Shown here: piece after piece, positions 5,415 through 32,067 of the stretch
Numbering within the stretch: the first letter of the stretch is position 1
Layout: every line of letters starts with the position of its first letter
NCBI GenBank assembly: GCA_963719425.1
Contig: OY970382.1
Coordinates: 522,880-586,879, forward strand
Source: an uncultured bacterium
Lineage (GTDB): Bacteria > Patescibacteriota > Minisyncoccia > UBA6257 > 2-01-FULL-56-20
Length of the DNA stretch: 64,000 bases
Reading direction: 5' to 3'
Translations under genes and position numbers: made by a program
Notes under the pieces: model-generated
Database searches by the model: none
What the model saw: only the letters and a program-made list of their open reading frames with translations
What the model was told of the DNA's origin: nothing

Positions 5415-5762
5415 CTAGGCTGCCGGGATATTCCAGCGCCAGTCAGTGCTATCGTGAGGAGCCCAAGGGTTGAGGTCAATGAGGACATCAGCCCGGTAGC
5501 CAGCGGCACGACGCGCCCGACGGACAACTTTCTCGACGTGAGGGATAATCCCGTAGATCATCCTTGCCTGCCGATGGGTCTTCACGGGACCGTCGAAAAA
5601 CGAGGGGCCGTGGACACTGACGCGGATACCATCCTCTCCGAACCGCACTTGATACGTAAAGGGGGCTTTGATTTTCTCAAATCCGCGTTGCACTGCCCTC
5701 CCGATCGCCTTCGCTGCTGGGCGAAGATACTCCTCCGACTGGTAACGAGGAAAATACAACAT
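5415..5762 (-). CDS. Hypothetical protein (115 aa)
   Basis: Open frame inside the island with no recognisable motif. Confidence 0.35.
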   Translation of the reverse strand: MLYFPRYQSEEYLRPAAKAIGRAVQRGFEKIKAPFTYQVRFGEDGIRVSVHGPSFFDGPVKTHRQARMIYGIIPHVEKVVRRARRAAGYRADVLIDLNPWAPHDSTDWRWNIPAA

Positions 5763-5941
5763 GTCACACCTCCAACTCCCGCCTGTCCTTATGGATCAGG
5801 TGCCATGCGTCATGGATATGTTTTATAGAGTTAGAACAACGACGCCTGTTAACTTACTGATAGTATTATAGCATACATAGATAATACTTGTCAAGTATCC
5901 GTTTGATGCGCTGATAAACTGGGGATTTATAGAGGGGATGA

Positions 5942-6004
5942 GGCCTACTCAAGAAGCAGCCAACACAAACCACACGATTGCAAATCGCGATAGAGAGGAA
6001 TAAT
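5942..6004 (+). pseudogene. Degraded third copy of the small conserved ORF (C-terminal remnant ...QEAANTNHTIANRDREE*)
   Basis: Translation is homologous to the C-termini of A1/A2. It sits directly before palindrome P5 and repeat R3. Confidence 0.3.
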
Positions 6005-6127
6005 TGCCGGATGCGACAAATTATCCAGCCTTCCTTTCCCCGTCTGAGGAACTATTCTTAGATTGTTCTTTCAGTTCGTGTAACGTTTGTTCCCAGGTTC
6101 GACAAGTCCCCCGATTGGGTCTACGAG
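5996..6127. repeat. ~130 bp repeat R3 (copy of 4049..4178), containing palindrome TTGCCG-gatg-CGaCAA at 6004..6019
   Basis: Direct comparison with R1. One mismatch in the palindrome arm. Confidence 0.7.
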
Positions 6128-6459: not shown

Positions 6460-7716
6460 ATGGGACCAGAGGACACACCAGCAGAATTCGAAACCAAGCA
6501 CGGCAGGCTATCCCGGGACTCGGAGAGGTACACGGAAGAAAGAAGGGAACTTAAAACGTTCTCTGAGGAGGAGACGGACACGGACGTGTTTGGTCACGAG
6601 ACGTTGGAAGAAATTGACCTGCTGCGAGATCCCCTGTACAAGTCAGGTCTGAAGCAGTCAGGCAAAAAACCCTTGGACGAACAGCAGCTCGCAACTAAAA
6701 TCGAGAAAGAACTGGAGGCCTCAAAGCGAATTTTCCTGGGGCTGGTAAGTCACGAAGAGATGTTTCTGGGAGAGTGGCCAGGAGAAGAAAATGTGACGTA
6801 TTCCTTTTTCGCGGAAGCTCTGAAGAATCAGGCTTTCTGGAAACAATTGAGAGAGCGGCGGCTTCTTGAAAACATCCCCGGTTTCAAAGGCGAGGTCCAC
6901 CCGGAGATCCTCATGCGGATCGTTGAGCCAAAAACGTTTCCTCTCGACCTGTACGAACAGATGCTGAGGATCCATGCAGAGAACTTCGCCGCGAAGCAAA
7001 AAGAGTTCGAGAAGAGGTTGCCCCAATTGATGCAAGATTTTTCGCAAAGGATTCGCGGCCTTATCGCGGAGAAACAATTGCCGCTCGACGAAACTGCTCT
7101 CAAACGAATACTCGAGGAGACGACATTCCGGCTTGCCGATGCCCTCACCACCCGCCTCAAGGAACGATGGGGAGAATATGACGTGGAAAAAGGAATGGTA
7201 AGCATAGCGGGACAAATCCCCTCCGAGGAGCAAGCGCACACTCTCGGTCACGAGATGCTGCACACCCTGAGCGGAAGAACAATCGTAACTCTGGACACCG
7301 AAGGACGCCCCGAAGACTCGTTCATTCTTCATCAACGGGTCGGCACTGACTTCTTTTCGGAGTTCGGTGGAATGATATCCCGTTTCAAATGGCTTAACGA
7401 AGCAATTACCGAAAAACTCACCACGAAGCTTTACCAATCACCGAGCCAATTTTACCCCAAGGAACGCGAGCTCATGGAATTGTTGCTTTCGCATGGGAAA
7501 TATCCCATAATAGAAGAGAAATTTCTTACTGATGCATATTTTGAAAATTACGACCCGAACCATCCGGAAAAAGTCCCTGCTTGGAAAACCTTGACCTTCG
7601 TCATCAACAAATCGTACCGGCCAGGTTTTCTCGTGGATTTGGACAAAATAATCAAACGCGACGGTATCCAGCGAGCGATTAACCTTGTGCGAAATTGGAG
7701 AAGCGAGACCGCGTAA
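6460..7716 (+). CDS. Putative zinc metallopeptidase-like protein (HExxH motif HTLGHEMLH), otherwise uncharacterised
   Basis: 418 aa with no signal peptide and a single HExxH around residue 260. Lies at the end of the defence-like island. Confidence 0.45.
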   Translation: MGPEDTPAEFETKHGRLSRDSERYTEERRELKTFSEEETDTDVFGHETLEEIDLLRDPLYKSGLKQSGKKPLDEQQLATKIEKELEASKRIFLGLVSHEEMFLGEWPGEENVTYSFFAEALKNQAFWKQLRERRLLENIPGFKGEVHPEILMRIVEPKTFPLDLYEQMLRIHAENFAAKQKEFEKRLPQLMQDFSQRIRGLIAEKQLPLDETALKRILEETTFRLADALTTRLKERWGEYDVEKGMVSIAGQIPSEEQAHTLGHEMLHTLSGRTIVTLDTEGRPEDSFILHQRVGTDFFSEFGGMISRFKWLNEAITEKLTTKLYQSPSQFYPKERELMELLLSHGKYPIIEEKFLTDAYFENYDPNHPEKVPAWKTLTFVINKSYRPGFLVDLDKIIKRDGIQRAINLVRNWRSETA

Positions 7717-7937
7717 TCGTAACGTGACGCCGATTGAATGACGCCACGGCCCACCCCACGGGGAATCGAACTGAAATCGGAAACAAAAAGTGAGATTTTA
7801 TGGGGATAAATTAACGCGGCGAGATTACCTTTGCGTCTACAAAAACCTTTGAATAATCAGATCTGAGATCGCAACGAACTTGTGAACTCAGATCTATGGT
7901 GGACGGCTCTTCGGGAACCGTCCACCGGATCAAATGT

Positions 7938-8444
7938 TCACCTCCCCCTCTTTTTTATGGCCGACAAAATCAAGCCTAGCTGCTTTGTTAAAAAACTGCG
8001 CCAGATCGCTATCCGTGAACAACTCCGGCGTCCCTGACCACCCTTTTGGTACCAGACCACCTCAGCGGGTCGCGTGAAACTTTGTTGGAGTGCCCCAATC
8101 ACCTTATCGTGTCTTGCGTGAACGACAAGGATGTATTCCCCTGGAATCTCTTCGCAGGCCAGATTGGCCCGGTTAAAGATTTCTTGGGTGGCTGGGAGAT
8201 CAATAGGGTCTGAGTAGATACGACACGACCACATGTCCTCTTCTTCATAGCACTCCACCACGACGAACTCGTTCCCCGAAACCAGGCGTCCTGCTTCCTT
8301 GTCACTCAATGTTTGAACGAATGAGAGATCCGGTCCGTGTTTGCACACCAGAATGCGCATCATAGGCAACCCCCTCCTCTGGGGCATACGCTGGCCAAAG
8401 CATAGCAGACCAGCTATGAAGGGGCAAGGATTTGCCCACTGCAA
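7938..8444 (-). CDS. Hypothetical protein (likely start at internal MMRIL, about 8363)
   Basis: ORF only. The C-terminal ~25 codons may be out of frame (an alternative frame gives a different ending). Confidence 0.35.
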   Translation of the reverse strand: MQWANPCPFIAGLLCFGQRMPQRRGLPMMRILVCKHGPDLSFVQTLSDKEAGRLVSGNEFVVVECYEEEDMWSCRIYSDPIDLPATQEIFNRANLACEEIPGEYILVVHARHDKVIGALQQSFTRPAEVVWYQKGGQGRRSCSRIAIWRSFLTKQLGLILSAIKKRGR

Positions 8445-11056: not shown

Positions 11057-11156
11057 CTTGCTTTTATTATATCGCATCCCTCTATTTCGCCAAGCATATC
11101 TAAAAGTAGCTCATCCTTGAAAGACGGCCTTTAGGGTGGTAATGTGCTCATAAACC

Positions 11157-11768
11157 ATGCCGCCAGAAATTTCACCCGAGCCCGCAGTGCAAGAAGAAGA
11201 AAGCCTGGAAGTCCAGCTCCGCATATTGAAAGAGGAAGTTGCTCGGCTCAAGCAACAAAATGTTGCATTGGAAACAGAAAATGCCCGCCTCATACAAAGG
11301 AGTGCTGACTTAGAAAAAGTCGCCACAAAGGACCTGCTTACCGGCCTTGATAATCGCAGGGGGCTTATAGAAAAGATGGATTCAAATCCTCCGCTAAAAG
11401 GCGAGGAGAGGCGCGAAAAACAGAAGCCAATGGCCGTTCTTGTTCTCGACATTGATAATTTTAAAATCGTGAATGATGCGTATGGCTACGAAAAAGGCGA
11501 TGAAGTTCTTCGGAATGTTGCTCTCATACTACAAGAAATCGTCCGACACGGGGACTGCGTCGGCCGTTGGGGAGGAGAAGAATTTGTTATCGTTTTTCGC
11601 AATGCAACCGCGCAAGACGTCATTGATAAATTCCATAAAGGAAGAGAGACTGCTGGACTGAGTTTTGGTGTGACAATCGGCGAAGAAAAAATGGATATCA
11701 CGTTCAGTGGCGGGGTTGCCGAATTCAACGTTAATGGGCCGATTGAAGCAACAATCGACAGGGTATGA
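11157..11768 (+). CDS. GGDEF-domain diguanylate cyclase with N-terminal coiled coil
   Basis: GGDEF-domain sequence LTGLDNRRG ... VLDIDNFKIVNDAYG ... RWGGEEF, containing the GGEEF active-site motif. Confidence 0.7.
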   Translation: MPPEISPEPAVQEEESLEVQLRILKEEVARLKQQNVALETENARLIQRSADLEKVATKDLLTGLDNRRGLIEKMDSNPPLKGEERREKQKPMAVLVLDIDNFKIVNDAYGYEKGDEVLRNVALILQEIVRHGDCVGRWGGEEFVIVFRNATAQDVIDKFHKGRETAGLSFGVTIGEEKMDITFSGGVAEFNVNGPIEATIDRV

Positions 11769-18971: not shown

Positions 18972-19283
18972 TCCGGCGTAGCTCAATGGTAGAGCGGCTC
19001 CCTGTCAAAGAAGGCAGCGCGCACTGGAAACGGTGCGATGAACATCTCGGGATAACGGTGAAGGCTAACCCGCAAGGCATGCGAACACCGTGGGAACCCC
19101 AGCCGTAAATGTGCGTTGCGCGCAGTTACGGCTGGGGACTCCGTAGAGACTAGATACCGAGACGCCTAATGTCCACTTTTCGGTTTTCGTGGGCGACGGC
19201 GATGATATAGTCCACGCCTTTTGGAAACATTGGGATTACGTGTAAGGAGATGGTTCCAGGTTCGAGTCCTGGCGCCGGAGCCA
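18972..19283 (+). tRNA. Intron-containing tRNA, most likely tRNA-Asn(GUU); group I intron in the anticodon loop
   Basis: 5' exon TCCGGCG-TA-GCTC-AATGGTA-GAGC-G-GCTCC-CTGT. 3' exon TAA-GGAGA-TGGTT-CCAGG-TTCGAGT-CCTGG-CGCCGGA-G-CCA. Perfect acceptor pairing. A U|...G| splice junction with an IGS GGCAG pairing to CUGU favours a loop of CUGUUAA. Splicing after U33 would instead give UGU (Thr). Confidence 0.6.
19006..19242 (+). ncRNA. Group I intron (~237 nt, no ORF) inside the tRNA anticodon loop
   Basis: Conserved core elements seen directly: R-like GUAGAGACUAGAUA (19150-19165) and S-like GAUGAUAUAGUCC (19201-19213) forming P7. Terminal G before the 3' exon. Candidate P1/IGS GGCAG near the 5' end. 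Several stable hairpins. Confidence 0.6.
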
Positions 19284-20769
19284 GTAGTTGGATTGAATGG
19301 GTTTTATTAAAATTTTCACGCGCGGAGCGAAGCTCCGCGTATGTTGTAGTGGGGATAAACTCGACACGGCGGTTTTTAAGAAAGAGGTTCGAGCCGAAAA
19401 TTTTCTGCAGGGATACCTTCTTCAAACTTAGGTCGTCATTGGTCACCGCTTCGGTGAGTAATGACGCGTCTTTTACCCATTCCCGCATAGGTTCGAGCCA
19501 AGCACAAACGTCCCGTCCCAAACGGGCAATCTGCTCCTCTAGAGTCTTCTTCTCTGACATAAGGACACAACGACGCTCAAGATAGGCGTCGCGCTCAATA
19601 TCTTGGGCGATATATATGTCGGTTAAGCGTTCCAACTGGCGGTCTATGTCCTTAACCTGCTCGCGCAGGGTTTGGATCGCGCGGGAGGCAACGCTTCCTG
19701 CTTTCTGTTCATCCTCTTTCATCCTCTGCTCATAGTATTCGACAAAAATCGGCGGCATGACGTATTGGGACAAGAGCGTGGAAAGATCGGCGGCGAGAGT
19801 TTCTTCGCGGACGTAGGGTTGTAAACATCGAACCGCCGACTTTTTGGTACAGCGATAATAGACGTAGCGGTGGACGTTTCCATTCTTTTGTTTTTTAATC
19901 CGCTCCTCGGCAGTGATCGCCATATGGCACTCGCCGCACGTGAGCAAGCCGCACAACGCTTGCGGGTCCTTCGTCGCAGTCTGCGGGTGGCCGCGCTTCA
20001 CGATAATTTTCTGCACCTTATCCCAAAGCCGCTTCTCAATGATCGGCGTATGTTTGCCTTCAAGCAGTTCTCCCTTGTAGACGAAATGGCCGTAGTAGAA
20101 CGGATTGGTGAGAATGAACTTCACGCGGTCTTCGTGCATCTCGTTGCCGTACAGACTTTTTACGCCGTTCTCGAACAGGAACTTGCCGATGTCTTGAATA
20201 CGGGAATTGCCCTTCGCATACAACTCGAAGGCCGCCCGTATGACGGGGGCCTTCTTCTTGTCCACGACAATCAACCTCGTGCGCGGATTGTTGAGATAGC
20301 CAACAGGAGCTGTACCAGGAAACTCGCCGCGCTTCGCTTTCTGCCGCAATCCCCGCGCCGTATTGGAACTCAGATCGCGGATATACTGGTTCGCCATTCC
20401 GAATTCGACGGACATCAAAAGTACGTTGTCGGCGGGATAGTAGCTTCGATCGTAGGCCTGAATGTGTGCTATCGTCCCACTTTGCAAGAGCCACTGGATT
20501 TGTGCCGCGTCCACTGGATTACGAGCTAAGCGGTCGATTTTCCAACAGATAATACCTTGGGCTTCGCCCGCGTTTATACGGGACATCATCTCATTAAATA
20601 TGGGACGGCCAGGAATTTTAGCCGTTTGTCGTTCCTCGAACTCCGCGACGATATTCAATCCTTCCTTCTTGGCAAGCTTATGCAAGACGGCAATCTGATC
20701 TTCAATCGAATGGACTTGCCTGTCCTTATCGTCGGTTGATTTGCGAGCATAGAGAAAATAGGTGGTCAT
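19150..20769 (-). CDS. Large serine recombinase (resolvase catalytic domain + recombinase domain + zinc ribbon); C-terminal ~90 codons overlap the IR and the tRNA/intron, so the true end is uncertain
   Basis: N-terminal YARKSTDDKDRQVHSIEDQ (catalytic Ser region) and the zinc ribbon CGLLTCGECH ... YYRCTKK. The reading frame continues through the tRNA 3' exon to a TAG inside intron element R. Confidence 0.75.
   Translation of the reverse strand: MTTYFLYARKSTDDKDRQVHSIEDQIAVLHKLAKKEGLNIVAEFEERQTAKIPGRPIFNEMMSRINAGEAQGIICWKIDRLARNPVDAAQIQWLLQSGTIAHIQAYDRSYYPADNVLLMSVEFGMANQYIRDLSSNTARGLRQKAKRGEFPGTAPVGYLNNPRTRLIVVDKKKAPVIRAAFELYAKGNSRIQDIGKFLFENGVKSLYGNEMHEDRVKFILTNPFYYGHFVYKGELLEGKHTPIIEKRLWDKVQKIIVKRGHPQTATKDPQALCGLLTCGECHMAITAEERIKKQKNGNVHRYVYYRCTKKSAVRCLQPYVREETLAADLSTLLSQYVMPPIFVEYYEQRMKEDEQKAGSVASRAIQTLREQVKDIDRQLERLTDIYIAQDIERDAYLERRCVLMSEKKTLEEQIARLGRDVCAWLEPMREWVKDASLLTEAVTNDDLSLKKVSLQKIFGSNLFLKNRRVEFIPTTTYAELRSARENFNKTHSIQLLAPAPGLEPGTISLHVIPMFPKGVDYIIAVAHENRKVDIRRLGI
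19280..19417. repeat. Inverted repeat IR-L (138 bp), begins at the tRNA CCA end and covers the last ~45 codons of the recombinase
   Basis: Reverse complement equals 22972..23109 with one mismatch (checked base by base). Confidence 0.85.
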
Positions 20770-21037
20770 AGGCTTTGTTCCTTTATAACAAGATAGAATA
20801 ATAAAATCAAGAGCAATACCTATTTTCAGGCTTAATTACTGGATAATTCACCCATTTCTAGGAATAAGATTATATTGGTGAAAAGGAACACGACGATTAA
20901 TAACACCTATAAATACCGTGTTTACTCATCAATCTCAATGCTAACCACTAGCATTTACTGTACGGGGCTTGCAAGTAATCGCTAACTATGCTAGGGTCAT
21001 AAGTGCCGAGAGCCATCGGCCTTAATCAATTCAAACT

Positions 21038-21454
21038 ATGCCAAAACAACACGACATACTAAAGAAACTTTTTACGGATGATTCTGAGGTCAATCCTGAA
21101 GAACTCTTTAAGCTATTATCCCCTTTTGTCAGAATAAATAAAAAGAGTAAGGAGGTGGTTTTCTTAGACGAGGCTCATAAACAATCTGTAAAAAATAAGA
21201 TCGTCCTTTTCTTATTAGCCAAGAAGGTACTCTTTTTATTAGGTGAAGCTGATACCGATCACGTTCAACCTAAGATTATTATTAAAGAATCTGGGATGCC
21301 AAGAGGGACCGTGCTACCGACATTGAAATCTCTTCGCGATAGTAAAACTGGCTCTTTCGTAAGCACTGAAGACGGTTCTTACTATATCTCCAGTTATCAG
21401 ATCGCCAAGATAAAAGAAAAAAACATTTTTAAGAACCATGAAAAAGACAAATAA
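21038..21454 (+). CDS. Hypothetical protein (AT-rich segment)
   Basis: ORF in a compositionally distinct low-GC block. Confidence 0.4.
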   Translation: MPKQHDILKKLFTDDSEVNPEELFKLLSPFVRINKKSKEVVFLDEAHKQSVKNKIVLFLLAKKVLFLLGEADTDHVQPKIIIKESGMPRGTVLPTLKSLRDSKTGSFVSTEDGSYYISSYQIAKIKEKNIFKNHEKDK

Positions 21455-21785
21455 AGAAATCATTGATCAGATAAGAGTTCTACTGAATGAGCTAGAGGGA
21501 TCGAAGCCCAGAGAACTGAACGCCCAGACTCATCATGCTAAGCAAACGATGAAGATCGGAAGGATTCCGACGGGCTGTATAGGTGCTATCCAGACATTAG
21601 TCGATGAGGGATTCTTAGATGAACTCCGAACTGTCCAGCAGGTTGTCGTAAAACTCAGGGAAGAAGGACAACCCTACAGCAGAGCATTAGTCTCTATGAA
21701 CTTATTGAATTTAGTGAAGCCTCCTCGGAAATTACTCCGACGCGTTAAAGATCAAGATCAGTGGCAATACATACTTAGAAAATAA
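21438..21785 (+). CDS. Hypothetical protein (AT-rich segment)
   Basis: ORF overlapping the previous stop by 17 nt, suggesting an operon. Confidence 0.4.
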   Translation: MKKTNKEIIDQIRVLLNELEGSKPRELNAQTHHAKQTMKIGRIPTGCIGAIQTLVDEGFLDELRTVQQVVVKLREEGQPYSRALVSMNLLNLVKPPRKLLRRVKDQDQWQYILRK

Positions 21786-21787
21786 AC

Positions 21788-22183
21788 ATGGCCAATCAAC
21801 TTAAAGACATACTAGACCGACTGACTAGATTAGAGGAGGTGGTGTTTGGTAACAAAGAGAAACCCGATAGTAAATTAAAGATACCAAATAAGAAAGGCAG
21901 ACTAGATTTCTCTCTTAACGAGAGAGCCTTTCTAAAAAAATACTTCTTTAAGTTTAATGGTCAACAAACATTCGCTTTAATTTGCGCTGCCTTATCGAAG
22001 GGAAAAACGGACACTCCAATCAATCTCTCGGGTATAAAGAAGACTTGGAAAAATTGCCAAGGAATCATTAAGTATCCATACAGTTCTATCTACTCTACCA
22101 GAGCGAAAGAGAACAATTGGGTTGTTCCAGGAAATAAGGCTACCTATTCGATTCGGCCTTCGTGGATAGAAATATTTAATTAA
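21788..22183 (+). CDS. Hypothetical protein (AT-rich segment)
   Basis: ORF tightly packed with its neighbours. Confidence 0.4.
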   Translation: MANQLKDILDRLTRLEEVVFGNKEKPDSKLKIPNKKGRLDFSLNERAFLKKYFFKFNGQQTFALICAALSKGKTDTPINLSGIKKTWKNCQGIIKYPYSSIYSTRAKENNWVVPGNKATYSIRPSWIEIFN

Positions 22184-22187
22184 TCCG

Positions 22188-22964
22188 ATGACAGAGGAAG
22201 AAGCTATCAAAAATGTATTGATCAAGGTCTTCCCTGCCAAGCACATTACCTCCGCGCTCGAACACTTCTCAGAGGCAGAGACAAAGTACCAACAGGAGGA
22301 TTGGGAAAAATCCTTATTGAGAAGTGGCAAGTTTATCGAATCAACATTAAAAGCCTTGTACGTTTATGCTGGTAAAACATTGCCGCCTAGTCGGCAATTT
22401 AAGGTCAGCACGGTCATTCAACAATTAGGACAACTTAGTAATAGCTACGACGACACTATCAGGCTAACCATCCCTCGTAGCTGCTCTTTCATTTACGATA
22501 TAGTTAGCAATCGAGGTGCGCGGCACGATTCAGACGATTTTGATCCAAATAAGATGGACGCTAGTGTTTCGATACCAACAATTTCATGGATATTGTCTGA
22601 AATGATCCGTTTCGCGAGTCAAACATCGCCGAGTAACGATGACGTTACTTCATTCACTGAGAGTCTGATGGAGAAAAAACATCCCCTATTTGAAACGATA
22701 GATGGCAGAATCTATGTTAACCACAAAGGATTGACTCCAAAGGATTTAGCCCTACTACTCTTATACGCGTACTATCCTAAAAGAATATCGCGAAAGGAAC
22801 TAACAGATTCTATAGAGAGGCATGGCAACTTTACCAGAAATGCAATTGCTATCGCGCTAACGAATATCAAAGACTTGGTTGATGATGACGGGACTGGTAA
22901 TTGGAAACTTCGTGAAATCGGCAGAGCTAAAGCCGCGCGGATATTAAATACATTACACTCATAG
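22188..22964 (+). CDS. Hypothetical protein (AT-rich segment)
   Basis: 258 aa ORF with no motif recognised. Confidence 0.4.
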   Translation: MTEEEAIKNVLIKVFPAKHITSALEHFSEAETKYQQEDWEKSLLRSGKFIESTLKALYVYAGKTLPPSRQFKVSTVIQQLGQLSNSYDDTIRLTIPRSCSFIYDIVSNRGARHDSDDFDPNKMDASVSIPTISWILSEMIRFASQTSPSNDDVTSFTESLMEKKHPLFETIDGRIYVNHKGLTPKDLALLLLYAYYPKRISRKELTDSIERHGNFTRNAIAIALTNIKDLVDDDGTGNWKLREIGRAKAARILNTLHS

Positions 22965-22971
22965 TTTATAA

Positions 22972-23109
22972 GGTATCCCTCCAGAAAATTTTCGGCTCGA
23001 ACCTCTTTCTTAAAAACCGCCGTGTCGAGTTTATCCCCACTACAACATACGCGGAGCTTCGCTCCGCGCGTGAAAATTTTAATAAAACCCATTCAATCCA
23101 ACTACTGGC
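22972..23109. repeat. Inverted repeat IR-R (partner of 19280..19417); on the + strand it encodes ...KVSLQKIFGSNLFLKNRRVEFIPTTTYAELRSARENFNKTHSIQLL then ASSYESTRTYFARNLS*
   Basis: Direct comparison. It would provide an alternative, stop-terminated 3' end for the recombinase if the segment inverted. Confidence 0.85.
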
Positions 23110-23149
23110 TAGTTCGTATGAGTCCACTCGTACCTATTTTGCCCGAAAT

Positions 23150-23520
23150 TTGAGCTGATTTACCCCATCATTCACCCCATCATTCGGGTATACTCGGAAT
23201 GATGGGGTAGGAAACCGAAATGCCCCCGTATATGCTCGCTTTTCTGTCGCACCGCCTCACAAACCTCAGACCCTACTTCACTCCGGTTTACCCCTACGTT
23301 CACCCCTACGTTCGGGATATGCCGGAACGTAGGGGTATGAAGTCTCAATCTCCTTACAAACGTTGGGATTTTTGATCCTCGCCGTTCAAAACTGGAAGTC
23401 CTACTTCACTCCGTTTCTGCCCTACCCAAGTGGTGTGCTCAGCCCCTCAGCCGCTCGCTGCTGCTCGGGCTTCGGGGCTTCGCGTATGGCGCGCCCAAAT
23501 TCCTCCCCCACAAAATAGCT
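23150..23520. repeat. Left arm of a ~400 bp imperfect inverted-repeat pair; contains two doubled-arm hairpin modules (23166-23215 and 23290-23340), three ctacttcactccg motifs and a 74-bp block (23436-23509) perfectly mirrored at 26465-26540
   Basis: Reverse-complement comparison with 26430..26800. Confidence 0.75.
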
Positions 23521-23571
23521 CACGGCCGCATGGCCGAGAAAATTAATAAAGATGTAAAATGTAGATGAATC

Positions 23572-25956
23572 ATGTCCAAACTAACAAAACAACAAAGACG
23601 TTCGAGAAGGAAGAGGCGGAAAGATAAGAAACGCAGAGAGAAACGCCTAAGCAGCAAAAAGACTAGGCAAAAAGCCGAGCCGTGGGTTCCTGTAAAAATG
23701 AAAATGTTTGAATTCCCCAATCCATTTCCCTCAAATGTCCCACAAGAGAAACGTTTGGAGATAATCAGATCGATAGGGGCAAACGCTAAAAGGGAGTTTG
23801 ATTTGAAATATCCAAAGATCGAAGAGTGGTTTAAAAAGTATGATCCCTTATATCTATTATCTTTTTGTCTTACTTATTTCGCATCAACACCAGAAGGAAT
23901 AGACCCAGAGGCTACTGGAGAAATGGACTTCTTTCCGTTCTATATAGAAATTATGCAAGCATTTGCGTTATATCAGGAGAGGAATTACTCTCCTAACCCC
24001 CTTTTCGGCGATGCTTCTGTTTTGAATAAAGAAATCAAAGAAATTGGAGAGCTTATGAGCGTAAGATTGATAGACATTCCTAAGGATCTAAAGACTGATG
24101 AAGAAATCCTTGCCTATAAATTAAGGACTGAAATGATGATGCAAACAACAGCTGTGAGGAATTGGGCATATTTTCATCAAATGAAAAGAGTCTCCTTGGC
24201 GTTGGCTAGTAAGATTGATAGTGATTTTAAAAAAAGCTTTGGCATCGGATCTTCTGATTTGATGAAGCTATTATTTAAACTTTCTGAAGAAAGAAATGAC
24301 TTATTAAACGACCATCTGGATAGAGTAAGAAGTTTTATAAATAAGCCTGATTATAAAGAAATAATGGAGGCGTACAACCAAGCATTCCCATCTAACAAAC
24401 GAATTGAGGCGAATGAAATGGAAGAACTCTGGAACAAAGCTGGCAAGAATAAGAAACATTTGACCGAGATGCTAATTTGCCACGCTGATTTAAAGTTGGA
24501 GAATATTTACTCTTTCACGGTAGACCATGCACTATCTCTCCTCGATGGAAATATAACCAAAGAAACTCTTAAAAATATCCTAAAAAAACTTTCTTACAAT
24601 TTTGGGGGGCTGAAAGATTTTAATAAAGAGCACATTATTCTTAGCAATCCAGTGCACAGTAAACCATTCATTAAGATTGATGAGGAAAAGTTCTATTCCG
24701 CAATTTGGGTGATATTGCCGCACCTTACATTAGACCTACTAGAAGATTTTGTCTGGGAAGATGAGGATCTTCGAGAAAAATATTCTGATATAAGATCGAA
24801 ATATCTGGAAGATGAAATAGTCAAGCTTTTTAAGAGTAATTTTCCGAATGGTACAGTTAGCAGGGGCAGTCTTTGGAAAAGTGGAATTCTTGGAAGGGAG
24901 TATGAAAACGATCTCACTCTTACTATTGATACATTCGCCATTGTAGTTGAAGCGAAATCTCAGAAATTAAGCGATCCGGCCAAACGGGGCGCACCCAAAA
25001 GATTGTTCGAAACCCTTAAAGAGTTAATAGAAGAACCATCTGAACAGGCTTTGAGATTTATAGATTATTTACAAAAGAATAAAAAGGTTCATGCATTTAA
25101 AAATAAACACGGAGAAACCAATACCATCGACAGCACCAAAATTAAGTATTACGTACCTCTCGGAGTAACTTTCTCTCATTTGGGTATGATTGGAAGTAAC
25201 TTAAAGAAACTGATTGAAGCCAAAGTCACAGACAAGCCTCTCGAAAAACTGGCTCCATCCATAAATTTTACCGACCTTGAAGGGGTCTTTGAGTTACTCC
25301 CGCTAGAAGCGGAGAAGATTCACTACCTAGCGAGAAGAAGAGAATTTGAAGCTCACGTTGAATACGATGGCGATGAGTTAGATCTTCTGGCCCTCTATCT
25401 CGAAAACGGATTCAATATCGGAGTTGCTGAGTACGACAAGAAGCATGTCTTCTTTCTTGGCATTAAATCAAAAGAATTAGATCCATATTTCATTGGAATA
25501 AACGAAGGAAGGAAGATCGCTAAACCAGAATTTGCTATGACTCAGTGGTGGAAAGATCTACTGACTACTATTTCTATGAGGAAATTTGATGGTTGGATAG
25601 AAACTTCCTTTGTTTTACTTAACAGCACCAAAGAAGATCAGGAGAAGTTTGAGGCGGGATTAAAAGAACTAATGGGACGCATTAAATCTGGGAAGGTTGA
25701 GAAGCCTCATAATTGGGTAGCTTTTATAACGGGGCCGGAAAGACGGCGATATGCAATTATTGGATATCCATATACCACTTCAGACAAAGAACTACGCGAT
25801 ACAATAATGTCTGAGGCAATTGACGGATCCGAAAAAGAGCACAAGGACATTCGAGGGATTGTGGTAATAGGAATAGACATGAATCATGCCAACTATCCTT
25901 ATAGTGTCTTCGCGCGAAGATTATCCACAAATCTTTTTGATACACTCACGCTTTAA
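23572..25956 (+). CDS. Large hypothetical protein (794 aa), extremely basic N-terminus (KQQRRSRRKRRKDKKRREKR...), possible PD-(D/E)xK-like motif (TIDTFAIVVEAKS)
   Basis: Single long ORF at ~35-40% GC. The nuclease-like motif is a weak visual call only. Confidence 0.45.
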   Translation: MSKLTKQQRRSRRKRRKDKKRREKRLSSKKTRQKAEPWVPVKMKMFEFPNPFPSNVPQEKRLEIIRSIGANAKREFDLKYPKIEEWFKKYDPLYLLSFCLTYFASTPEGIDPEATGEMDFFPFYIEIMQAFALYQERNYSPNPLFGDASVLNKEIKEIGELMSVRLIDIPKDLKTDEEILAYKLRTEMMMQTTAVRNWAYFHQMKRVSLALASKIDSDFKKSFGIGSSDLMKLLFKLSEERNDLLNDHLDRVRSFINKPDYKEIMEAYNQAFPSNKRIEANEMEELWNKAGKNKKHLTEMLICHADLKLENIYSFTVDHALSLLDGNITKETLKNILKKLSYNFGGLKDFNKEHIILSNPVHSKPFIKIDEEKFYSAIWVILPHLTLDLLEDFVWEDEDLREKYSDIRSKYLEDEIVKLFKSNFPNGTVSRGSLWKSGILGREYENDLTLTIDTFAIVVEAKSQKLSDPAKRGAPKRLFETLKELIEEPSEQALRFIDYLQKNKKVHAFKNKHGETNTIDSTKIKYYVPLGVTFSHLGMIGSNLKKLIEAKVTDKPLEKLAPSINFTDLEGVFELLPLEAEKIHYLARRREFEAHVEYDGDELDLLALYLENGFNIGVAEYDKKHVFFLGIKSKELDPYFIGINEGRKIAKPEFAMTQWWKDLLTTISMRKFDGWIETSFVLLNSTKEDQEKFEAGLKELMGRIKSGKVEKPHNWVAFITGPERRRYAIIGYPYTTSDKELRDTIMSEAIDGSEKEHKDIRGIVVIGIDMNHANYPYSVFARRLSTNLFDTLTL

Positions 25957-25968
25957 TAACAAGAGGGC

Positions 25969-26346
25969 TTAGTTTTTGAATTTTTCCAAAATCAGCCCAA
26001 CCAGCCAGTAGCAGAATCGGTAGAGCACGAAAGTGAGCACGTCAAAATAGGGATTGAAAATGATTCCCCATCCTGCTATCCAGATGATGATTGCCAGAAT
26101 CCCAAAAAAGAATATGTGGTAGAGCAGACTGCCGAGCATACCCGTTTCTCCTAGCAGGGCTTTTACCGAAGCGAGAACGAGAAGGAAGAAAAGGCCTCCG
26201 ACTATCCACGGCAGATAAGGCACTGAAGCACGCAGAGTTGCGGTGGCGACAGTTTGGAATATGAAGGTGCCCATTTCCGTTGAGGAGGCCAGAATCCTTT
26301 GGCCTAAATCCGGCGGTAGCTTGATAACTGGCAGGGTCGAGGTCAT
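25969..26346 (-). CDS. Small integral membrane protein (125 aa, 4 TM)
   Basis: Hydrophobic ORF convergent with the 794 aa gene. Confidence 0.4.
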   Translation of the reverse strand: MTSTLPVIKLPPDLGQRILASSTEMGTFIFQTVATATLRASVPYLPWIVGGLFFLLVLASVKALLGETGMLGSLLYHIFFFGILAIIIWIAGWGIIFNPYFDVLTFVLYRFCYWLVGLILEKFKN

Positions 26347-26429
26347 TTCAAGCCAAACATAAGCCAGTAGGACGATAAGGTCAAATCAAGCGTAGTTTCA
26401 TAGAAAACCACCTATTCAGAAAGATGTTG

Positions 26430-26800
26430 AGCTACCACCCTCGGGCGCGCCAAAAGGAGGGGTTGGGGGAGGAATTTGGGCGCGCCATACGCGAAGCCCC
26501 GAAGCCCGAGCAGCAGCGAGCGGCTGAGGGGCTGAGCACAGACCCGTTTAGGGGTATTGTCGGGGGTCAGGGTTTTCGAGAAAAGCGAGGTCTTGTAAGG
26601 GCAGAAGGCCGTCAGGGTAGTCAATCGTGATTGACGGGGTGATTGACTAGGTAAACCGGAGTGAAGTAGGACTTTGGATTTTGTCCGGCGAAACTCAAAA
26701 AGCCCAGCGTTTGCGGGGCGATCTGGACTTGCTACCCCTTCATTCCGAGCATACCCGAATGAAGGGGTGAATGAAGGGGTAAAACAATCAGGAATTTGCC
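26430..26800. repeat. Right arm of the ~400 bp imperfect inverted-repeat pair; contains one doubled-arm hairpin module (26737-26790) in inverted orientation
   Basis: See the left arm. Hairpin loop CGAGCATACCC is the reverse complement of left-arm loop GGGTATACTCG with one change. Confidence 0.75.
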
Positions 26801-27014
26801 ATAAAATACGCTTGGATCTGCTCATACAAGCGAGCAGTACTGGACTTTGAGAGTACAAATCGAATAAATCGCTAAGTTTCATGCGCTTTCTGTGGTCATG
26901 TCACTATTAGACCACACGGATCATTAAAAAATTCTAAAATCCGAGCCTTGCGAAAACCCGTTTCAGGAACATGTCAGGTAGAATAATTGACGTCTGATCC
27001 GACATAAGCGTACC

Positions 27015-28799: not shown

Positions 28800-28865
28800 C
28801 AGGTTCGTACAGCCACTAAGCCGCCGGAGCACCTAGGAAAAGTATCGGGGAGACCGAGAGGTATC
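28800..28865. repeat. Junction motif copy a (..gGTTCgtacAgCCActaaGCCGCCGGAGCACCTAGGAAAAGTATCGGGGAGACCGAGAGGTATCG)
   Basis: Shares GCCGCCGGAGCACCTA..AAAAGT.TCGG..GAC..AGA.GG.TAT with copy d. Confidence 0.55.
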
Positions 28866-28932
28866 GCTTGATGTAACTAATTTTTTCCGTTACACTGTTG
28901 CTCGGAACGCAGTTATTTCAAGGAGGAGTACA

Positions 28933-29208
28933 ATGGCGAAGCCAATGAATCTAGGCAGCGGCGCTAATGCCGTGATTCTAAACGAACTCAGGAGGAAGGG
29001 AGGCACCGCCCGTTTGAATCTCAAGGTGCTTTCAGCCCAATCCAGCTTTAAACATGGGACTGTCAGCCATGCTCTCCATCGTTTGCAGAGAGAGGGGTTT
29101 GTCAAAATTGAAGAAGAGGGGGCCGGGTTGCGCTCACCCTTGGTCAGCCTCTGCTACCAGAACATTAATCTCCTGCCCTGCACAATCTCTACCCTGGGGC
29201 AGACGTAA
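28933..29208 (+). CDS. Small hypothetical protein, possibly winged-helix DNA-binding
   Basis: 91 aa with an HTH-like VSHALHRLQREGFV. Weak. Confidence 0.3.
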   Translation: MAKPMNLGSGANAVILNELRRKGGTARLNLKVLSAQSSFKHGTVSHALHRLQREGFVKIEEEGAGLRSPLVSLCYQNINLLPCTISTLGQT

Positions 29209-29282
29209 GCGTCTTTCACGCTTGACTTTTGCCCCTCCCACCTAAGATTGGCAACAAAAGTTGATAGTTTTAGGTGAGACAG

Positions 29283-29326
29283 GAGGTTCTCACGTCGTCC
29301 AGTCGCCGGAGCGGAGAATATCGCGG
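29283..29326. repeat. Junction motif copy b (GAGGTTCTCACGTCGTCCAGTCGCCGGAGCGGAGAATATCGCGG)
   Basis: Core GGTTCTC.C.TCGTCCAG.CGCCGGAGCGGA shared with copies d, e and f. Confidence 0.55.
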
Positions 29327-29330
29327 TAAT

Positions 29331-29702
29331 CTATTTGTCTTTATCGTCTCTGCGCACTTCGTTGGCGCCCACCTGGTTCCAATCGTGACGCCAGCGGCGC
29401 TTTTCCTCCAGGAGTTCGGCGGTGGGATTTTGAGCCCACCAACCGCCATCGGATCCCTTAAAGACAATGACATCCTTTTCCAAAACATCCGCAGGGAGGC
29501 CGTGGATATTTCTCTCTTCATCGATGATTATCGGCCAGAAAAGATGTCCTTTCAGGCTATCAACTTCTTTTGGTGTTAGCCTTCGCTTCGCCAGAACATC
29601 AAATACCTCGGAGACCTCGCCAGCATACACTTCTTTATCGGTTTCCCTGGCGTCGCCCTCGTTTGGGAGGGATTCGCTTGGCACCTCGGCGACGTTTTTC
29701 AC
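29331..29702 (-). CDS. Hypothetical protein (123 aa)
   Basis: ORF only. Confidence 0.35.
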   Translation of the reverse strand: MKNVAEVPSESLPNEGDARETDKEVYAGEVSEVFDVLAKRRLTPKEVDSLKGHLFWPIIIDEERNIHGLPADVLEKDVIVFKGSDGGWWAQNPTAELLEEKRRWRHDWNQVGANEVRRDDKDK

Positions 29703-29751
29703 ATTATCATTATAGCCTTAGTTCAATTAATTGTGCATTAGAGAGGTTCTA

Positions 29752-29784
29752 ACGAAGCGGAGAGATGAAATAATCAATAAACAG
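29752..29784. repeat. Junction motif copy c (degenerate: GAGGTTCTAACGAAGCGGAGAGATGAAATAATC)
   Basis: Matches the 5' and 3' ends of copy f. Confidence 0.4.
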
Positions 29785-29922
29785 GCGCTATTCCATACTT
29801 ACAGTAGGTTCGAACAGTTTCTACGATTCGGAGCGGATTTGACTTATCTATGATACATGTGATATAACATGCTCGGATGTTTTGAATTGGCGGCTATGCC
29901 TTAAAACAGCAGGAGGTGATAC

Positions 29923-30501
29923 TTGAGACCCTTCTTTTCCTATCTTGGCGGTGCCGTTGTTTTCCTCGTTTCGCTCTGGTACGCCTGGCGAATCTGGAGA
30001 AAGCGCGTCGAGCCTCAAAACTCGGCAAGTTGGCTGATGTGGGCCGTTATAGATGCCACCGTTCTGGCGTGTACAATCGCTGCGTACAAACCAATGTGGT
30101 TGCCTCTTGGCTACATGGTTGGTGCCTCGACTATCACTCTAGCCCTCTTTATTCGAGGCACATGGCAATGGTCCGAGAAAGAAACATTCTGTGCAGTTGG
30201 CGCAGCGGTCGCCGTAGCAATTTGGCTGACGTGGAGTGCTGCGTATGGCATCCTCGCAGGAGTCGTCGCAATGACACTTGCAGGAACACCGCTTTACGTC
30301 GATCTCATCCGGAATCCAATCCGCAAGACCTGGCCAGTGTGGTTTTTCACGGCAGTGGCCTGTGTATGTACCCTTCTTGGTTCCGATTGGAGCTTCGCAG
30401 GGACGACGCTTGCCTGGGGCGGTCTCGCTTTCAACGGGAGCCTTACGCTGGTCGTGCTGCGACCCAACCGAAGAGGTCAACAGTGTCACAAAATAAATTA
30501 A
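29923..30501 (+). CDS. Integral membrane protein (192 aa, ~6 TM)
   Basis: Hydrophobic ORF. Confidence 0.45.
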   Translation: MRPFFSYLGGAVVFLVSLWYAWRIWRKRVEPQNSASWLMWAVIDATVLACTIAAYKPMWLPLGYMVGASTITLALFIRGTWQWSEKETFCAVGAAVAVAIWLTWSAAYGILAGVVAMTLAGTPLYVDLIRNPIRKTWPVWFFTAVACVCTLLGSDWSFAGTTLAWGGLAFNGSLTLVVLRPNRRGQQCHKIN

Positions 30502-30580
30502 CCTAGCCCGATCCACAAAAGGAGGTTTGATCGGGCCCAGTCCTAAGGTTGTAATTGAATTATAATTTCAGGACTGCAGA

Positions 30581-30646
30581 TGGGTTCTCCCATCGTCCAG
30601 CCGCCGGAGCACCTAACAAAAGTTTCGGACGGACCAAGATGGGTAT
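30581..30646. repeat. Junction motif copy d (GGGTTCTCCCATCGTCCAGCCGCCGGAGCACCTAACAAAAGTTTCGGACGGACCAAGATGGGTATA)
   Basis: Best-preserved copy. Lies 65 bp upstream of the 30711 start. Confidence 0.6.
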
Positions 30647-30710
30647 AGTTCCAATGGTCGAATTAGTTCAAATCCAAGCCGTGAGTCAAAGTGTTTGATA
30701 TAATTCAATT

Positions 30711-31487
30711 ATGGAGTCCTCGCCCAGCCCGGAACCAAAAGCGGCAATCCCCAAACCAGAACATTTCCCAAACCACCTCAAAGAAGGTGTTCCCGCAATC
30801 ATGGCTTGCATCGGAACCCCCGATGATTTCAGAGAAAGTCCCGGCCTTGAGAAATTCGTCTTTCGAAAAACCTCGTTTATGGATATTCCGGGGGCTTACA
30901 ATGTAGACTATTCCGGGCCTCACCGCCTCTTGGTAGAACAAAATTTCAAAAATCCCGAAACCGGATCCTATGTCATATCTCCGATTGACGATTTTAATAA
31001 GTTTTCTCAAACATTCCATGATTGCACGGGGTTGGTGGTCGCCGGTTATGACAAAAAGACTGGTCAAAACATATCCTTTTTGAGCCATCAAGATCCAAAA
31101 TATTTTTCGGAAACTAAAGCCAATCGGGACACTCTCATATCCGACCTGAGGGAACGCCTACTGGAGCTAAAGGAAAGGTGCCGCGAGGGAACTATTGATG
31201 CGGCAATCTTCGGAGGGAAGTATCTGAAACCGGTCAATTCGGAAAATTCTCGATTATACCAGAAAAACTATCTTGACTCCATCAAACTTTTAGCGGATGA
31301 GACGAAAAAAGTCCTCGGCTTCGAACCGATTGTAATGACCGGTCCGAAGAAAGCAAGGTATGGAGCAGATGATGTTTTTTATGACAATGAACACAGAAGG
31401 CTTTATATCGCGAGACCTGAGGTTGGCGACAGTTCAACGCAAAGTTTTACTCCGAGTGCCATAGAAGACCAAGAGAAAAAGTGGTAG
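30711..31487 (+). CDS. Hypothetical protein (258 aa)
   Basis: ORF only. Confidence 0.45.
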   Translation: MESSPSPEPKAAIPKPEHFPNHLKEGVPAIMACIGTPDDFRESPGLEKFVFRKTSFMDIPGAYNVDYSGPHRLLVEQNFKNPETGSYVISPIDDFNKFSQTFHDCTGLVVAGYDKKTGQNISFLSHQDPKYFSETKANRDTLISDLRERLLELKERCREGTIDAAIFGGKYLKPVNSENSRLYQKNYLDSIKLLADETKKVLGFEPIVMTGPKKARYGADDVFYDNEHRRLYIARPEVGDSSTQSFTPSAIEDQEKKW

Positions 31488-31524
31488 TTAACCACCGAGA
31501 AGCGTCCCAGTTCTACCCTGACCC

Positions 31525-31568
31525 CAGCACAATTGAGGTTCTCCCATCCTCCAGCCGCCGGAGCGGAT
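31525..31568. repeat. Junction motif copy e (GAGGTTCTCCCATCCTCCAGCCGCCGGAGCGGATTATGG)
   Basis: Lies 20 bp upstream of the 31586 start. Confidence 0.6.
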
Positions 31569-31585
31569 TATGGTAAACTGATGCC

Positions 31586-32029
31586 ATGATTTTTGCCCAT
31601 CTTATTGTAGGGGCAATGCCGGTTGATGAGGCTCAGTTTTCCTGGTTTTGGTTTGTAGGCTCAATTATTCCCGACATCGATCACGTGTTGGTCCTCGCGC
31701 ATCGTAGAATTTTCGCATGGGATAAGATTGTTGATAGTTTGCGGCACGAGGAACAATACGGCATCCGGTTCAAAACAAAATACTTCCATTCACTGTTTGG
31801 AGCTCTTATCGTTTCTGCCCTAGTAACTTTTTTCAACCTTACGGGAGGCATATACTTCTTTTTGGCGTATCTGTTCCATCTTCTTCTTGATTGGCCAGAT
31901 AGAGATGTAAAACAATACCTGTATCCCTTCAAGAAAGAATTTCGAGGATTCTTGCCTATCTTTTCCAAAACAGAGCAAGCACTTACGGGCATTCTGTTCC
32001 TTTTAATGCTCCTGTTATACAGGTTCTAA
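31586..32029 (+). CDS. Membrane-bound metal-dependent hydrolase-like protein (YdjM/DUF457-like)
   Basis: IIPDIDHV ... HLLLDWPD histidine/aspartate motifs in a multi-TM protein. Moderate to weak. Confidence 0.4.
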   Translation: MIFAHLIVGAMPVDEAQFSWFWFVGSIIPDIDHVLVLAHRRIFAWDKIVDSLRHEEQYGIRFKTKYFHSLFGALIVSALVTFFNLTGGIYFFLAYLFHLLLDWPDRDVKQYLYPFKKEFRGFLPIFSKTEQALTGILFLLMLLLYRF

Positions 32030-32067
32030 CGTCGTCCACGCTTCGGAGCGGAGATGAGATAATCAGG
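32022..32067. repeat. Junction motif copy f (CAGGTTCTAACGTCGTCCACGCTTCGGAGCGGAGATGAGATAATC), overlapping the stop codon of the 31586 gene
   Basis: The motif begins within the final codons ...YRF* (tac agg ttc taa). Confidence 0.55.

Follow-up and report, generated by a model that had tools for sequence, protein, structure and literature searches.

The window analysed here is a stretch of 64,000 nt (contig OY970382.1 of assembly GCA_963719425.1, positions 522,880 to 586,879) from an uncultured bacterium of the Patescibacteria, also known as the candidate phyla radiation (CPR). It carries a large serine recombinase (LSR, also called the integrase below) gene that reads into a tRNA gene, and an inverted copy of the 3' end of that LSR gene. 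Our analysis indicates that these parts probably belong to a small LSR island inserted at the tRNA, which consists of two cargo segments and holds an inverted internal copy of the attachment site attP, and in which homologous exchange between the repeat arms flips one of the segments (segment A).

According to this account, the LSR would mobilise an island of roughly 7.55 kb, seated in the CPR genome at the 3' terminus of a tRNA-Asn gene with an intron. Integration replaces the short native tail of the integrase by read-through into antisense tRNA sequence, giving the junction at the left inverted repeat, IR-L (P arm-core-tRNA half). The right inverted repeat, IR-R, is the second, inverted P arm typical of the family, and together with an intact P' arm it makes up a complete internal attP copy. 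The island would then comprise segment A, between the inverted P arms, and segment B, between the inverted P' arms. Homologous exchange between arms would keep them identical and occasionally flip a segment; a flip of segment A would swap the P arm joined to the tRNA with the one joined to P', exchange the disordered integrase tail and reverse four cargo genes, leaving the three-site make-up unchanged. The data demonstrate the anatomy and its conservation in the family, the presence of both orientations and junctions among relatives, and gene conversion between arms; we infer that the exchange is of the RecA type rather than catalysed by the integrase, and any regulatory role it might have would be putative. 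The features on which this account is built are the following.

18972-19283, plus strand: tRNA gene that serves as target, its anticodon loop interrupted by a 237-nt intron (candidate group I type), called by ARAGORN with introns allowed
19150-20769, minus strand: LSR gene, 539 amino acids (aa), with the Pfam domains Resolvase, Recombinase and Zn_ribbon_recom
19279-19419, minus strand: IR-L, the near P arm (integrase-proximal attP half), encoding the last 47 codons of the enzyme and joined to the tRNA
22970-23110, plus strand: IR-R, the far P arm, which repeats the 3' end of the integrase gene in inverted orientation and is not translated
IR-L/tRNA, core CAGTA at 19282-19286, overlapping the CCA: site 3, P arm-core-tRNA, an attR-type junction (P-core-B')
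IR-R and 23103-23158, plus strand: site 2, P arm-core-P' arm, the inverted complete internal attP copy, whose core and P' encode SSYESTRTYFARNLS and a stop
Core at 26835-26839: site 1, host-core-P' arm, attL-type, the presumed right end of the island; the core CAGTA / CTG(G)CT is common to the sites
26826-26788, minus strand: degenerate remnant of the P' tail (..LYEQIQAYFMANS and a stop), following the site 1 core
23111-23510, plus strand: left arm (P' side) of a second inverted-repeat pair, in which 23160-23210 and 23288-23338 are each an 'X X loop X'' module
26464-26838, minus strand: right arm of the second pair, with a 77-nt perfect stretch at 26464-26540 and one module at 26734-26782

The inverted repeat and the target tRNA gene

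A repeat search of the whole window returned inverted arms at 19279-19419 and 22970-23110, which are 141 nt long, differ by one mismatch (99% complementary) and are separated by a spacer of 3550 nt. No other inverted repeat of the 64 kb is as long or anywhere near as perfect, and a match of this length cannot have arisen by chance. The sole mismatch (CTG/CTC) is synonymous. The initial annotation, made from the sequence alone, had described the same repeat as 19280-19417 and 22972-23109 with 137 of 138 positions identical, and the arms were found to extend slightly further. Its observation that the repeat begins at the CCA of the tRNA also holds, since the outer end of IR-L covers the final five tRNA nucleotides (AGCCA; CCA at 19281-19283).

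That the repeat might be an assembly artefact, collapsed or mis-joined, was a caveat raised at that stage, and many metagenome contigs do break at these repeats. Yet the same architecture occurs in more than 80 independent assemblies, including complete-chromosome metagenome-assembled genomes, and scaffolds of 20-55 kb from several assemblers resolve the repeat; with a like repeat found in dozens of independent assemblies, we reject the caveat and consider the probability of an artefact to be negligible. Mis-assembly could affect the orientation only, not the existence of the repeat.

ARAGORN at default settings made no tRNA call at 18972-19283. The Rfam family Intron_gpI (RF00028) matched 18991-19234 with 22.5 bits, which is below its gathering score of 50. 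The U preceding the 5' splice site and the G at the 3' end are present at both candidate pairs of intron boundaries, and the anticodon is ambiguous because a GT dinucleotide recurs at both boundaries. ARAGORN parses the gene as Thr-UGU. In the related locus L003 the intron-less orthologue, the exons of which match the target tRNA, is tRNA-Asn(GTT) with the loop CTGTTAA, and for this reason Asn-GUU appears to be the better reading. The same tRNA in related loci has introns of 209-573 nt, or none.

Attachment sites and limits of the island

The core at 19282-19286 was placed by the start and end of identity, using a comparison of the three sites and direct reading of the sequence. The P' arm of site 2 holds the T-loop-like motif CTCGTACC, positioned 4 nt farther from the core than TCGAACC in the tRNA half. 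This P' arm is 98% identical to that of the related locus L026, and the P' arm of site 1 is nearer to the L026 arm than to that of site 2; the island looks mosaic. The arms of the second inverted-repeat pair are 75-100% identical and bracket two open reading frames (ORFs) of 794 and 125 aa. The island would run from about 19284 to 26837, or roughly 7.55 kb, with the far boundary deduced from site 1. This span includes the main GC trough of the window (20-26 kb, 36-47% GC), and the flanks have 50-60% GC.

As an alternative, the initial annotation had viewed the repeats as the terminal inverted repeats of a mobile element that targets the tRNA at its 3' end. Targeting of the tRNA 3' end is supported by our analysis, and IR-R is instead part of an internal complete attP copy, with the island running on to about 26837. 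A transposon-like element at 19279-23110 would agree with the start of the repeat at the tRNA end and with a recombinase lying inside. The sequence beyond IR-R, on the other hand, is that of the element (native tail and stop, a sequence module, the second repeat pair and a third junction), and two simple relatives without the repeat, L044 and L064, integrate at tRNAs with a direct host-core-P' junction. Moreover, recombination between two inverted sites leads to inversion and not to excision. We therefore consider a transposon of this kind very improbable, and it was rejected as a class assignment on the finding that conserved element sequence, not host DNA, follows IR-R.

Conservation across related loci

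For comparison, 80 genome loci and 80 metagenome loci encoding relatives of the LSR were collected. Most of their integrases read into a tRNA gene, of the types Asn, Gln, Thr, Leu, Val, Glu, Arg, Tyr, Gly, Ile, Ala, Trp, Phe or Lys. The 3' end of the integrase gene recurs in inverted form at a distance of 130 nt to 8.8 kb upstream of that gene. This copy is present in 47 of the 61 loci that have a complete integrase 3' end and at least 6 kb of upstream flank (about 77%), and in 85 of the 119 loci with a complete 3' end and a flank of at least 500 nt. As in the window, the native tail and its stop follow the far arm in frame.

Where the flank is long enough, a third site lies farther upstream, with the same tail on the integrase strand and unrelated sequence before the tail. 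The three-site layout is identical in ten loci (L010, L014, L024, L034, L052, L069, L070, L073, L076 and L177), all of which have hybrid junctions that share a short core and whose P and P' arms together rebuild attP; in the window, site 3 is clear in this respect, and site 1, although degenerate, retains the core, a remnant of the tail and the repeat beside it. Site 2 is an exact chimera of the left half of site 3 and the right half of site 1 in nine of the 11 aligned loci and in an element from the Rifle aquifer (described below), the exceptions being the window, with its diverged site 1, and L051, which gave no clean alignment. The core common to the three sites measures 3-6 nt and is the antisense of the tRNA discriminator and CCA. 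On its outer side, site 1 is flanked in L070, L073 and L076 by a terminator-like hairpin that belongs to a neighbouring gene, indicating that this flank is ordinary host DNA.

In the P' arm, GCTCGAACC mimics the antisense T-loop. The outward offset of this motif by 4 nt relative to the tRNA half was measured by hand in the window, L014, L034, L052, L069 and L073. In serine integrases, attP half-sites reportedly hold the motif bound by the zinc domain about 5 bp farther out than attB half-sites do, and the offset seen here resembles this known difference. In L051 (11490-11580) the integrase-side junction is shifted by about 27 nt into the P' arm and ends right after a GCTCGAAC motif, with a tRNA-Leu lying 57 nt beyond; this may reflect an illegitimate exchange at the T-loop-like motif.

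Could IR-R and P' be merely the leftover 3' end of a second, decayed element, nested or in tandem, with no inversion in this organism? The degenerate site 1 of the window and the closer similarity of its P' arm to that of L026, which speak for a mosaic history, would fit such a static relic, and P-arm scars beside tRNAs do exist. In the element-free sister strain of the Rifle host (L186, 1150-1250), for example, an in-frame P-arm fragment of about 100 nt follows tRNA-Val directly; it belongs to a different integrase lineage and looks like the scar of a lost island. We nevertheless find this explanation improbable. The inverted copy with an intact native tail is present in about 77% of the well-flanked relatives and its far-specific features are conserved, the arms are identical within loci and diverged between loci, and relatives show the opposite orientation. 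In addition, tandem integration by LSR chemistry would yield direct copies, not inverted ones.

The cargo is not conserved between loci, save for three genes shared with L045, and segment B is thus not a core module. A search of IMG/VR returned no relatives and so lends no support to a phage. Many short metagenome contigs end exactly at the inner edge of the integrase 3' repeat or begin inside the far arm (L087, L088, L096, L107, L141, L143, L148, L152, L153, L155, L157 and others). The repeats represent a systematic cause of contig breaks beside tRNAs in CPR metagenome assemblies, and also explain spurious integrase C-termini in databases, with 5-90 tRNA-encoded residues.

The integrase and its C-terminal tail

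The LSR matches the Resolvase domain PF00239 at residues 5-149 (E 3.8e-21), as well as PF07508 and PF13408, the recombinase and zinc-ribbon/coiled-coil parts. The motif of the nucleophilic serine, YARKST, is invariant in a 64-sequence LSR alignment (Y7, R9, K10, S11). A sequence search of the PDB aligned residues 7-411 with the SPbeta integrase (9dxh, E 8e-13) and also found the A118 integrase. The JGI label 'DNA invertase Pin-like' for this LSR is a generic annotation.

Residues 1-497 constitute the enzyme, and the final 42 codons are read-through of the antisense 3' exon and intron of the tRNA. It had been noted initially that the frame has no stop until it has crossed the 3' exon and part of the intron, and that beyond IR-R the same peptide soon ends cleanly. 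Both points were verified: the frame passes the 3' exon and runs on into the intron for about 90 nt, to a stop at 19150-19152, and next to IR-R the peptide goes on as SSYESTRTYFARNLS for 15 codons, with the stop at 23156-23158.

More than 4500 homologues scored above threshold in one search, mostly from CPR metagenome-assembled genomes. The called C-termini of the majority are antisense tRNA (e.g., ...APRVGLEPTTNSLTGSCSTIELPRN), and a minority has a short conserved native tail of the type found beside IR-R, such as LYQIARTYFSKHDE, KPYESTRSDFAQNLS or TLYDQVRTFFQQQS, each followed by the stop. The consensus of this tail, about LYxxARTYFxxN and stop, is conserved in the family both beside far arms and in native-tail proteins. 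Both forms are found together in several clusters at 90% identity (P0190 and P0181, P0152 and P0160, P0228 and P0222). The existence of these two kinds of C-terminus implies that the crossover of attP falls within the integrase ORF, at a point about 15 codons ahead of the native stop, and hence that integration at the discriminator/CCA end of a tRNA swaps the native tail for antisense-tRNA read-through.

An AlphaFold2 model was built for the native-tail homologue P0003 from the 64-sequence alignment, with a mean predicted local distance difference test (pLDDT) score of 86. It shows long helices at 340-443, with a beta-hairpin and a helix after them. A fold is predicted for the part that the repeat encodes (helix 447-458, beta-hairpin 462-471, helix 475-488), and residues 491-512, which include the native tail, have a pLDDT below 50; as the native tail is present in only five rows of the alignment, the latter is weak evidence. 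The crossover is therefore predicted to fall just past the last folded element of the integrase, which fits the tolerance of arbitrary tRNA-encoded tails of 5-90 residues. The initial annotation had suggested that the invertible segment toggles the recombinase C-terminus. Toggling seems unlikely to be the purpose, since the swapped tail is predicted to be disordered and about 95% of the relatives have arbitrary tRNA-encoded tails, and the toggle is probably a by-product. We found no evidence for a role of the swapped tail as a degron or activity switch.

Codon usage in the native-tail stretch is biased, with GCT in 46 of 50 Ala codons and CGA in 60 of 81 Arg codons. The bias shows a nucleotide-level constraint on the T-loop-like motif, and only this nucleotide-level bias is counted as safe. 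Codon statistics were also applied to the native tail to tell selection on the protein from selection on the DNA, with a result that is confounded by ascertainment through a regular expression.

Orientation change and identity of the arms

The initial annotation had proposed an invertible segment, and this is borne out for the element family. In L001 and L002, from two JGI samples, the integrase is 86% identical to that of the window in protein and 83% in nucleotides. The order in L001 is the 3' part of tRNA-Asn, a 115-nt P fragment, AAA_15 and helix-turn-helix (HTH) genes, the integrase facing away and the native tail; it thus reads tRNA-P fragment-cargo-LSR-P-core-P', and L026 and the window are reversed. 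Its own inverted repeat is perfect over 115 nt. Compared with L026, the segment made up of the far-type arm, its inner flank and the integrase is flipped relative to the tRNA and P' flanks.

The second case comes from the Rifle aquifer, where Giovannonibacteria carry an 8.25-kb island with the integrase reading into tRNA-Val and a cargo of a Schlafen/AlbA gene, HTH, DNA methylase and LexA-like genes and a ThiF/E2/ubiquitin-like set. The contig L164 equals this island (L165) over 2275 nt with one mismatch (99.96%) and then continues into the core and the P' arm, providing an LSR-P' junction in addition to the LSR-tRNA junction. The former is supported by reads in so far as the arms are identical over about 115 nt, less than k = 127, if the contig name k127_... 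gives k. Both orientations are accordingly documented within the family by L001 against L026 and the window, and both junction types by L164 against L165. Native tails on the integrase were seen in L001/L002, L043, L074, L139, L162 and L164. The 12-kb contig L074 has two sites (7542-7941 and 11134-11468), both complete P-core-P' and inverted with respect to each other, and no tRNA was found on it; it may represent a free (excised) form of a two-attP element.

The arms are identical within loci over 112-175 nt. Those of L001 are 100% identical to each other and about 83% identical to the arms of the window, and in the sister loci L073 and L076 the substitutions are common to both arms within each locus. 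In the Rifle element, a single-nucleotide polymorphism (SNP) in P' occurs at sites 2 and 1 as A,G in three contigs, A,A in one and G,G in one. This pattern is a signature of gene conversion between inverted arms in one population. The initial annotation had taken the segment to be recombinase-driven; homologous exchange is favoured instead, because serine-recombinase exchange at the core moves the arms and cannot homogenise them. Such exchange, perhaps stimulated by breaks at the cores, is in our view the best-supported route to both homogenisation and flipping.

Structured motifs and competing explanations

The P arms contain a conserved structure, located in the window as follows.

19321-19339, mirrored at 23050-23068: GC-rich hairpin in the P arm, with an 8-bp stem and a 3-nt loop, about 40 nt from the core

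A hairpin with a perfect stem of at least 6 bp was found at the same position in 126 of 127 distinct P arms of the family, with 41 different stem sequences; stems of at least 7 bp occurred in 88 of 122 arms, compared with 14 of 610 control windows. This stretch lies within the integrase coding sequence, and the palindromic stem seems to impose pairs of covarying residues on the protein (S/E, E/S, T/V and A/A, judged by eye). The P arm also holds two CCCTCCAAAAAATC repeats and TCGAACC. Many far arms are preceded, just internally to the arm, by the G-rich motif GCGCGCACGGGAGGGTGGGGCAAG (L001, L012, L015, L022, L026, L041, L050, L061 and L071). These conserved features indicate an old, selected design of the arms. 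An Rfam search with the conserved non-coding motifs gave no family match.

Several observations weigh against homologous exchange as the whole explanation. The far arms of many divergent loci (L011, L042, L046, L049, L053, L057, L067, L073, L075, L078, L106 and others) have a 9-11-nt insertion, TT(C/T)TGAATTT, which lies before T(C>T)GAACC at about 118 nt from the core. It introduces a stop codon and duplicates the TTGAA motif at a distance of one helical turn, and the sequence on either side of it is identical to the near arm. Many divergent loci also have a far-specific GGGAGGGTGGGGCAAG motif. Such features of far arms suggest a dedicated function that homologous exchange does not supply; in the window, neither the insertion nor the GCGCGCACGGGAGGGTGGGGCAAG motif is present in the far arm. 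The orientation with the integrase reading into the tRNA makes up about 95% of the relatives (about 15:1). As frequent neutral flipping would equalise the two states, flipping must be rare relative to turnover, or the flipped state is counterselected or transient (e.g., excision-prone). The evidence for flipping comes from relatives, and the genome of the window was seen in one orientation, the common one.

The Rifle case, too, allows for two readings, as the L164 junction is either an inversion product or the attP of an excised circle. L164 carries A at the P' SNP, and three of the five Rifle contigs have A at site 2 and G at site 1, so that the allele weakly favours inversion. All ten long neighbourhoods of the Rifle host gene had the common orientation, and the reciprocal junction (tRNA-far arm) was not recovered among them. 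Furthermore, site 1 of the window is more diverged than in other loci, with 17 of 35 probe matches and the TCGAAC motif lost, and the far end of the island may no longer be competent for recombination. Finally, the empty tRNA-Asn site is predicted to read ...GGAGCCAGTA followed by CTGGACTTTGAGAG..., and a check of related genomes found no clean unoccupied site; L005 is syntenic with the window on the tRNA side only, no recognisable P' was found in the fetched flanks of the close relatives L003, L004, L005 and L085, and sister strains of the Rifle host have a P-arm scar in place of a clean attB.

Part of this evidence would suit a programmed flip-flop, in which recombination between the internal attP (site 2) and the tRNA junction (site 3) would be the work of the integrase itself. 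Any sequence joined to the tRNA half is then taken as attB, the non-tRNA half of attB not being conserved. Because inversion regenerates the same two site types, such a flip-flop would be freely reversible without a directionality factor, and it could be used as an on/off switch for integrase expression or for competence to excise. The ancient conserved architecture speaks for it, as do the far-arm insertion duplicating TTGAA, the upstream G-rich motif and the structured P arms with their covarying hairpin. On their outer sides the repeats end at the core, the arbitrary host sequence that forms the B half of attB makes the tRNA junction resemble attB, and the strong bias in orientation implies that the two states are not equivalent. 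Nonetheless, an exchange at the core cannot homogenise the arms, which are identical over 112-175 nt and show the gene-conversion SNP. To our knowledge, large serine integrases recombine only attP with attB and are auto-inhibited on hybrid sites with one P-type and one B-type half; these limits also count against the flip-flop. We regard it as unlikely, though worth keeping in mind.

A related and rather doubtful idea is that the layout of attL, inverted complete attP and attR is a purpose-built switch worked by the integrase independently of a directionality factor. It would toggle between a locked state, with the integrase convergent with the tRNA and its native tail and 3' module lost, and a mobilisable, properly terminated state. 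Still more speculatively, the two inverted-repeat pairs might let a single-stranded copy of the island, e.g., after natural transformation, fold into a duplex attP.

The 3' module just mentioned lies directly after the native integrase stop and consists of a 12-mer present twice in tandem, a spacer of about 11 nt and an inverted copy. Its sequence is TTTACCCC-N4-TTC ACCCC-N4-TTC GGG..CG GAA-N4'-GGGGT, in which the central 4 nt covary in all three copies. It occurs in the window at 23160-23210, 23288-23338 and 26734-26782 (minus strand) and in L021, L023, L027, L116, L117, L119, L120 and L164; of a scan for the module, which runs of N had swamped, only the tail was used. A terminator, a protein-binding site or an oriT-like site are candidate roles. 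The gene-conversion SNP of the Rifle element falls in this module.

Relation to known systems

As far as its sequence allows us to judge, the island is a member of the serine-integrase integrative elements and would work as one. With the LSR elements and prophages phiC31, Bxb1, A118 and SPbeta it shares an enzyme of resolvase, recombinase and zinc-ribbon/coiled-coil parts, a short core, hybrid junctions, P and B half-sites with a shifted recognition motif and, with LSR elements, the format of a small cargo island. Unlike these, the family has its attP inside the integrase ORF and targets the 3' terminal nucleotides of many tRNAs, the universal T-loop apparently serving as a half-site motif and the other half being arbitrary; the island also keeps an extra complete inverted attP copy, with arms of 112-175 bp.

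The serine invertases Hin (hix), Gin of Mu (gix) and Cin of P1 (with 0.6-kb inverted repeats) likewise have a recombinase gene in or beside a segment bracketed by inverted repeats, and inversion there exchanges the C-terminal coding end of a gene. Those enzymes have about 190 aa and a C-terminal HTH, whereas the enzyme of the window is an LSR of about 500 aa. Its repeats are 141 bp long and, outside the core, asymmetric in the attP/attR manner, neither hix-type sites of 26 bp nor an enhancer were identified, and the gene end that is swapped is the recombinase's own and predicted to be disordered. Assignment to the phase-variation switches of the Hin/Gin/Cin/Pin type was rejected on the basis of enzyme size (about 500 aa) and repeat length (141 bp).

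The yeast 2-micron plasmid, with FLP/FRT in 599-bp inverted repeats, also has two unique segments and inverted repeats that each hold a crossover site. The likeness is to a presumed circular form of the island, with repeats of roughly 0.2-0.55 kb. The recombinase here is a serine and not a tyrosine enzyme, no replication function was identified, and a role in amplification would be purely speculative. In integration-dependent immunity of mycobacteriophages (attP in the repressor gene) and in split integrases of the SSV1 type, integration alters a protein C-terminus as well; those systems use tyrosine integrases, and the serine integrase of the window stays intact to its last folded element.

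A full-text literature search retrieved no description of an attP within the ORF of a serine integrase together with an inverted internal attP, and none of this CPR family. We thus appear to be dealing with an undescribed, widespread variant of serine-integrase islands, and neither the attP in the ORF nor the conserved inverted attP inside the integrated element belongs to the current picture of such elements. The analysis defines a very abundant family of small tRNA-targeting islands in the Patescibacteria, a major and poorly understood bacterial radiation. The islands of relatives carry defence-type genes, namely restriction-modification, GmrSD, Mrr, AAA_15, a Bil-like ubiquitin system and a Schlafen/AlbA gene. 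It appears that the universal T-loop of tRNAs is recognised by the integrases as one half-site and that an arbitrary other half is tolerated, a property of interest for integrase engineering. Retention of the inverted attP copy, together with the orientation dominance of about 15:1, poses a testable question on the control of directionality.

Cargo and surroundings of the island

The two cargo segments are given below.

21038-22964, plus strand: segment A cargo, four ORFs of 138, 115, 131 and 258 aa in DNA of 39-41% GC
23572-26346: segment B cargo, low in GC, with a 794-aa ORF (plus strand) and a 125-aa ORF (minus strand) that, judged by eye, seems hydrophobic

PADLOC, Pfam, NCBIfam and PDB sequence searches with the six ORFs returned nothing save a weak, sub-threshold HEPN match for the 258-aa ORF. 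Three of the four segment A ORFs are the genes shared with L045. The 794-aa ORF (23572-25956) contains a D..(E)AK stretch, TIDTFAIVVEAKSQK, which by eye is reminiscent of the PD-(D/E)xK nuclease motif.

To the right of the island, at 28819-32052, where the GC content is slightly lowered, a 33-41-nt repeat (..GGTTCTCCCATCGTCCAGCCGCCGGAGC..) occurs in four to six direct copies at intervals of 0.5-1.8 kb. Near the left end of the window, repeated 35-nt hairpin-like units (GTTGCCG..CGGCAAC) at 2613-2647 and 4041-4275 start right after a tRNA-Glu gene (2536-2609), and direct repeats of 155-175 nt with 78-81% identity are found at 3906-6124.

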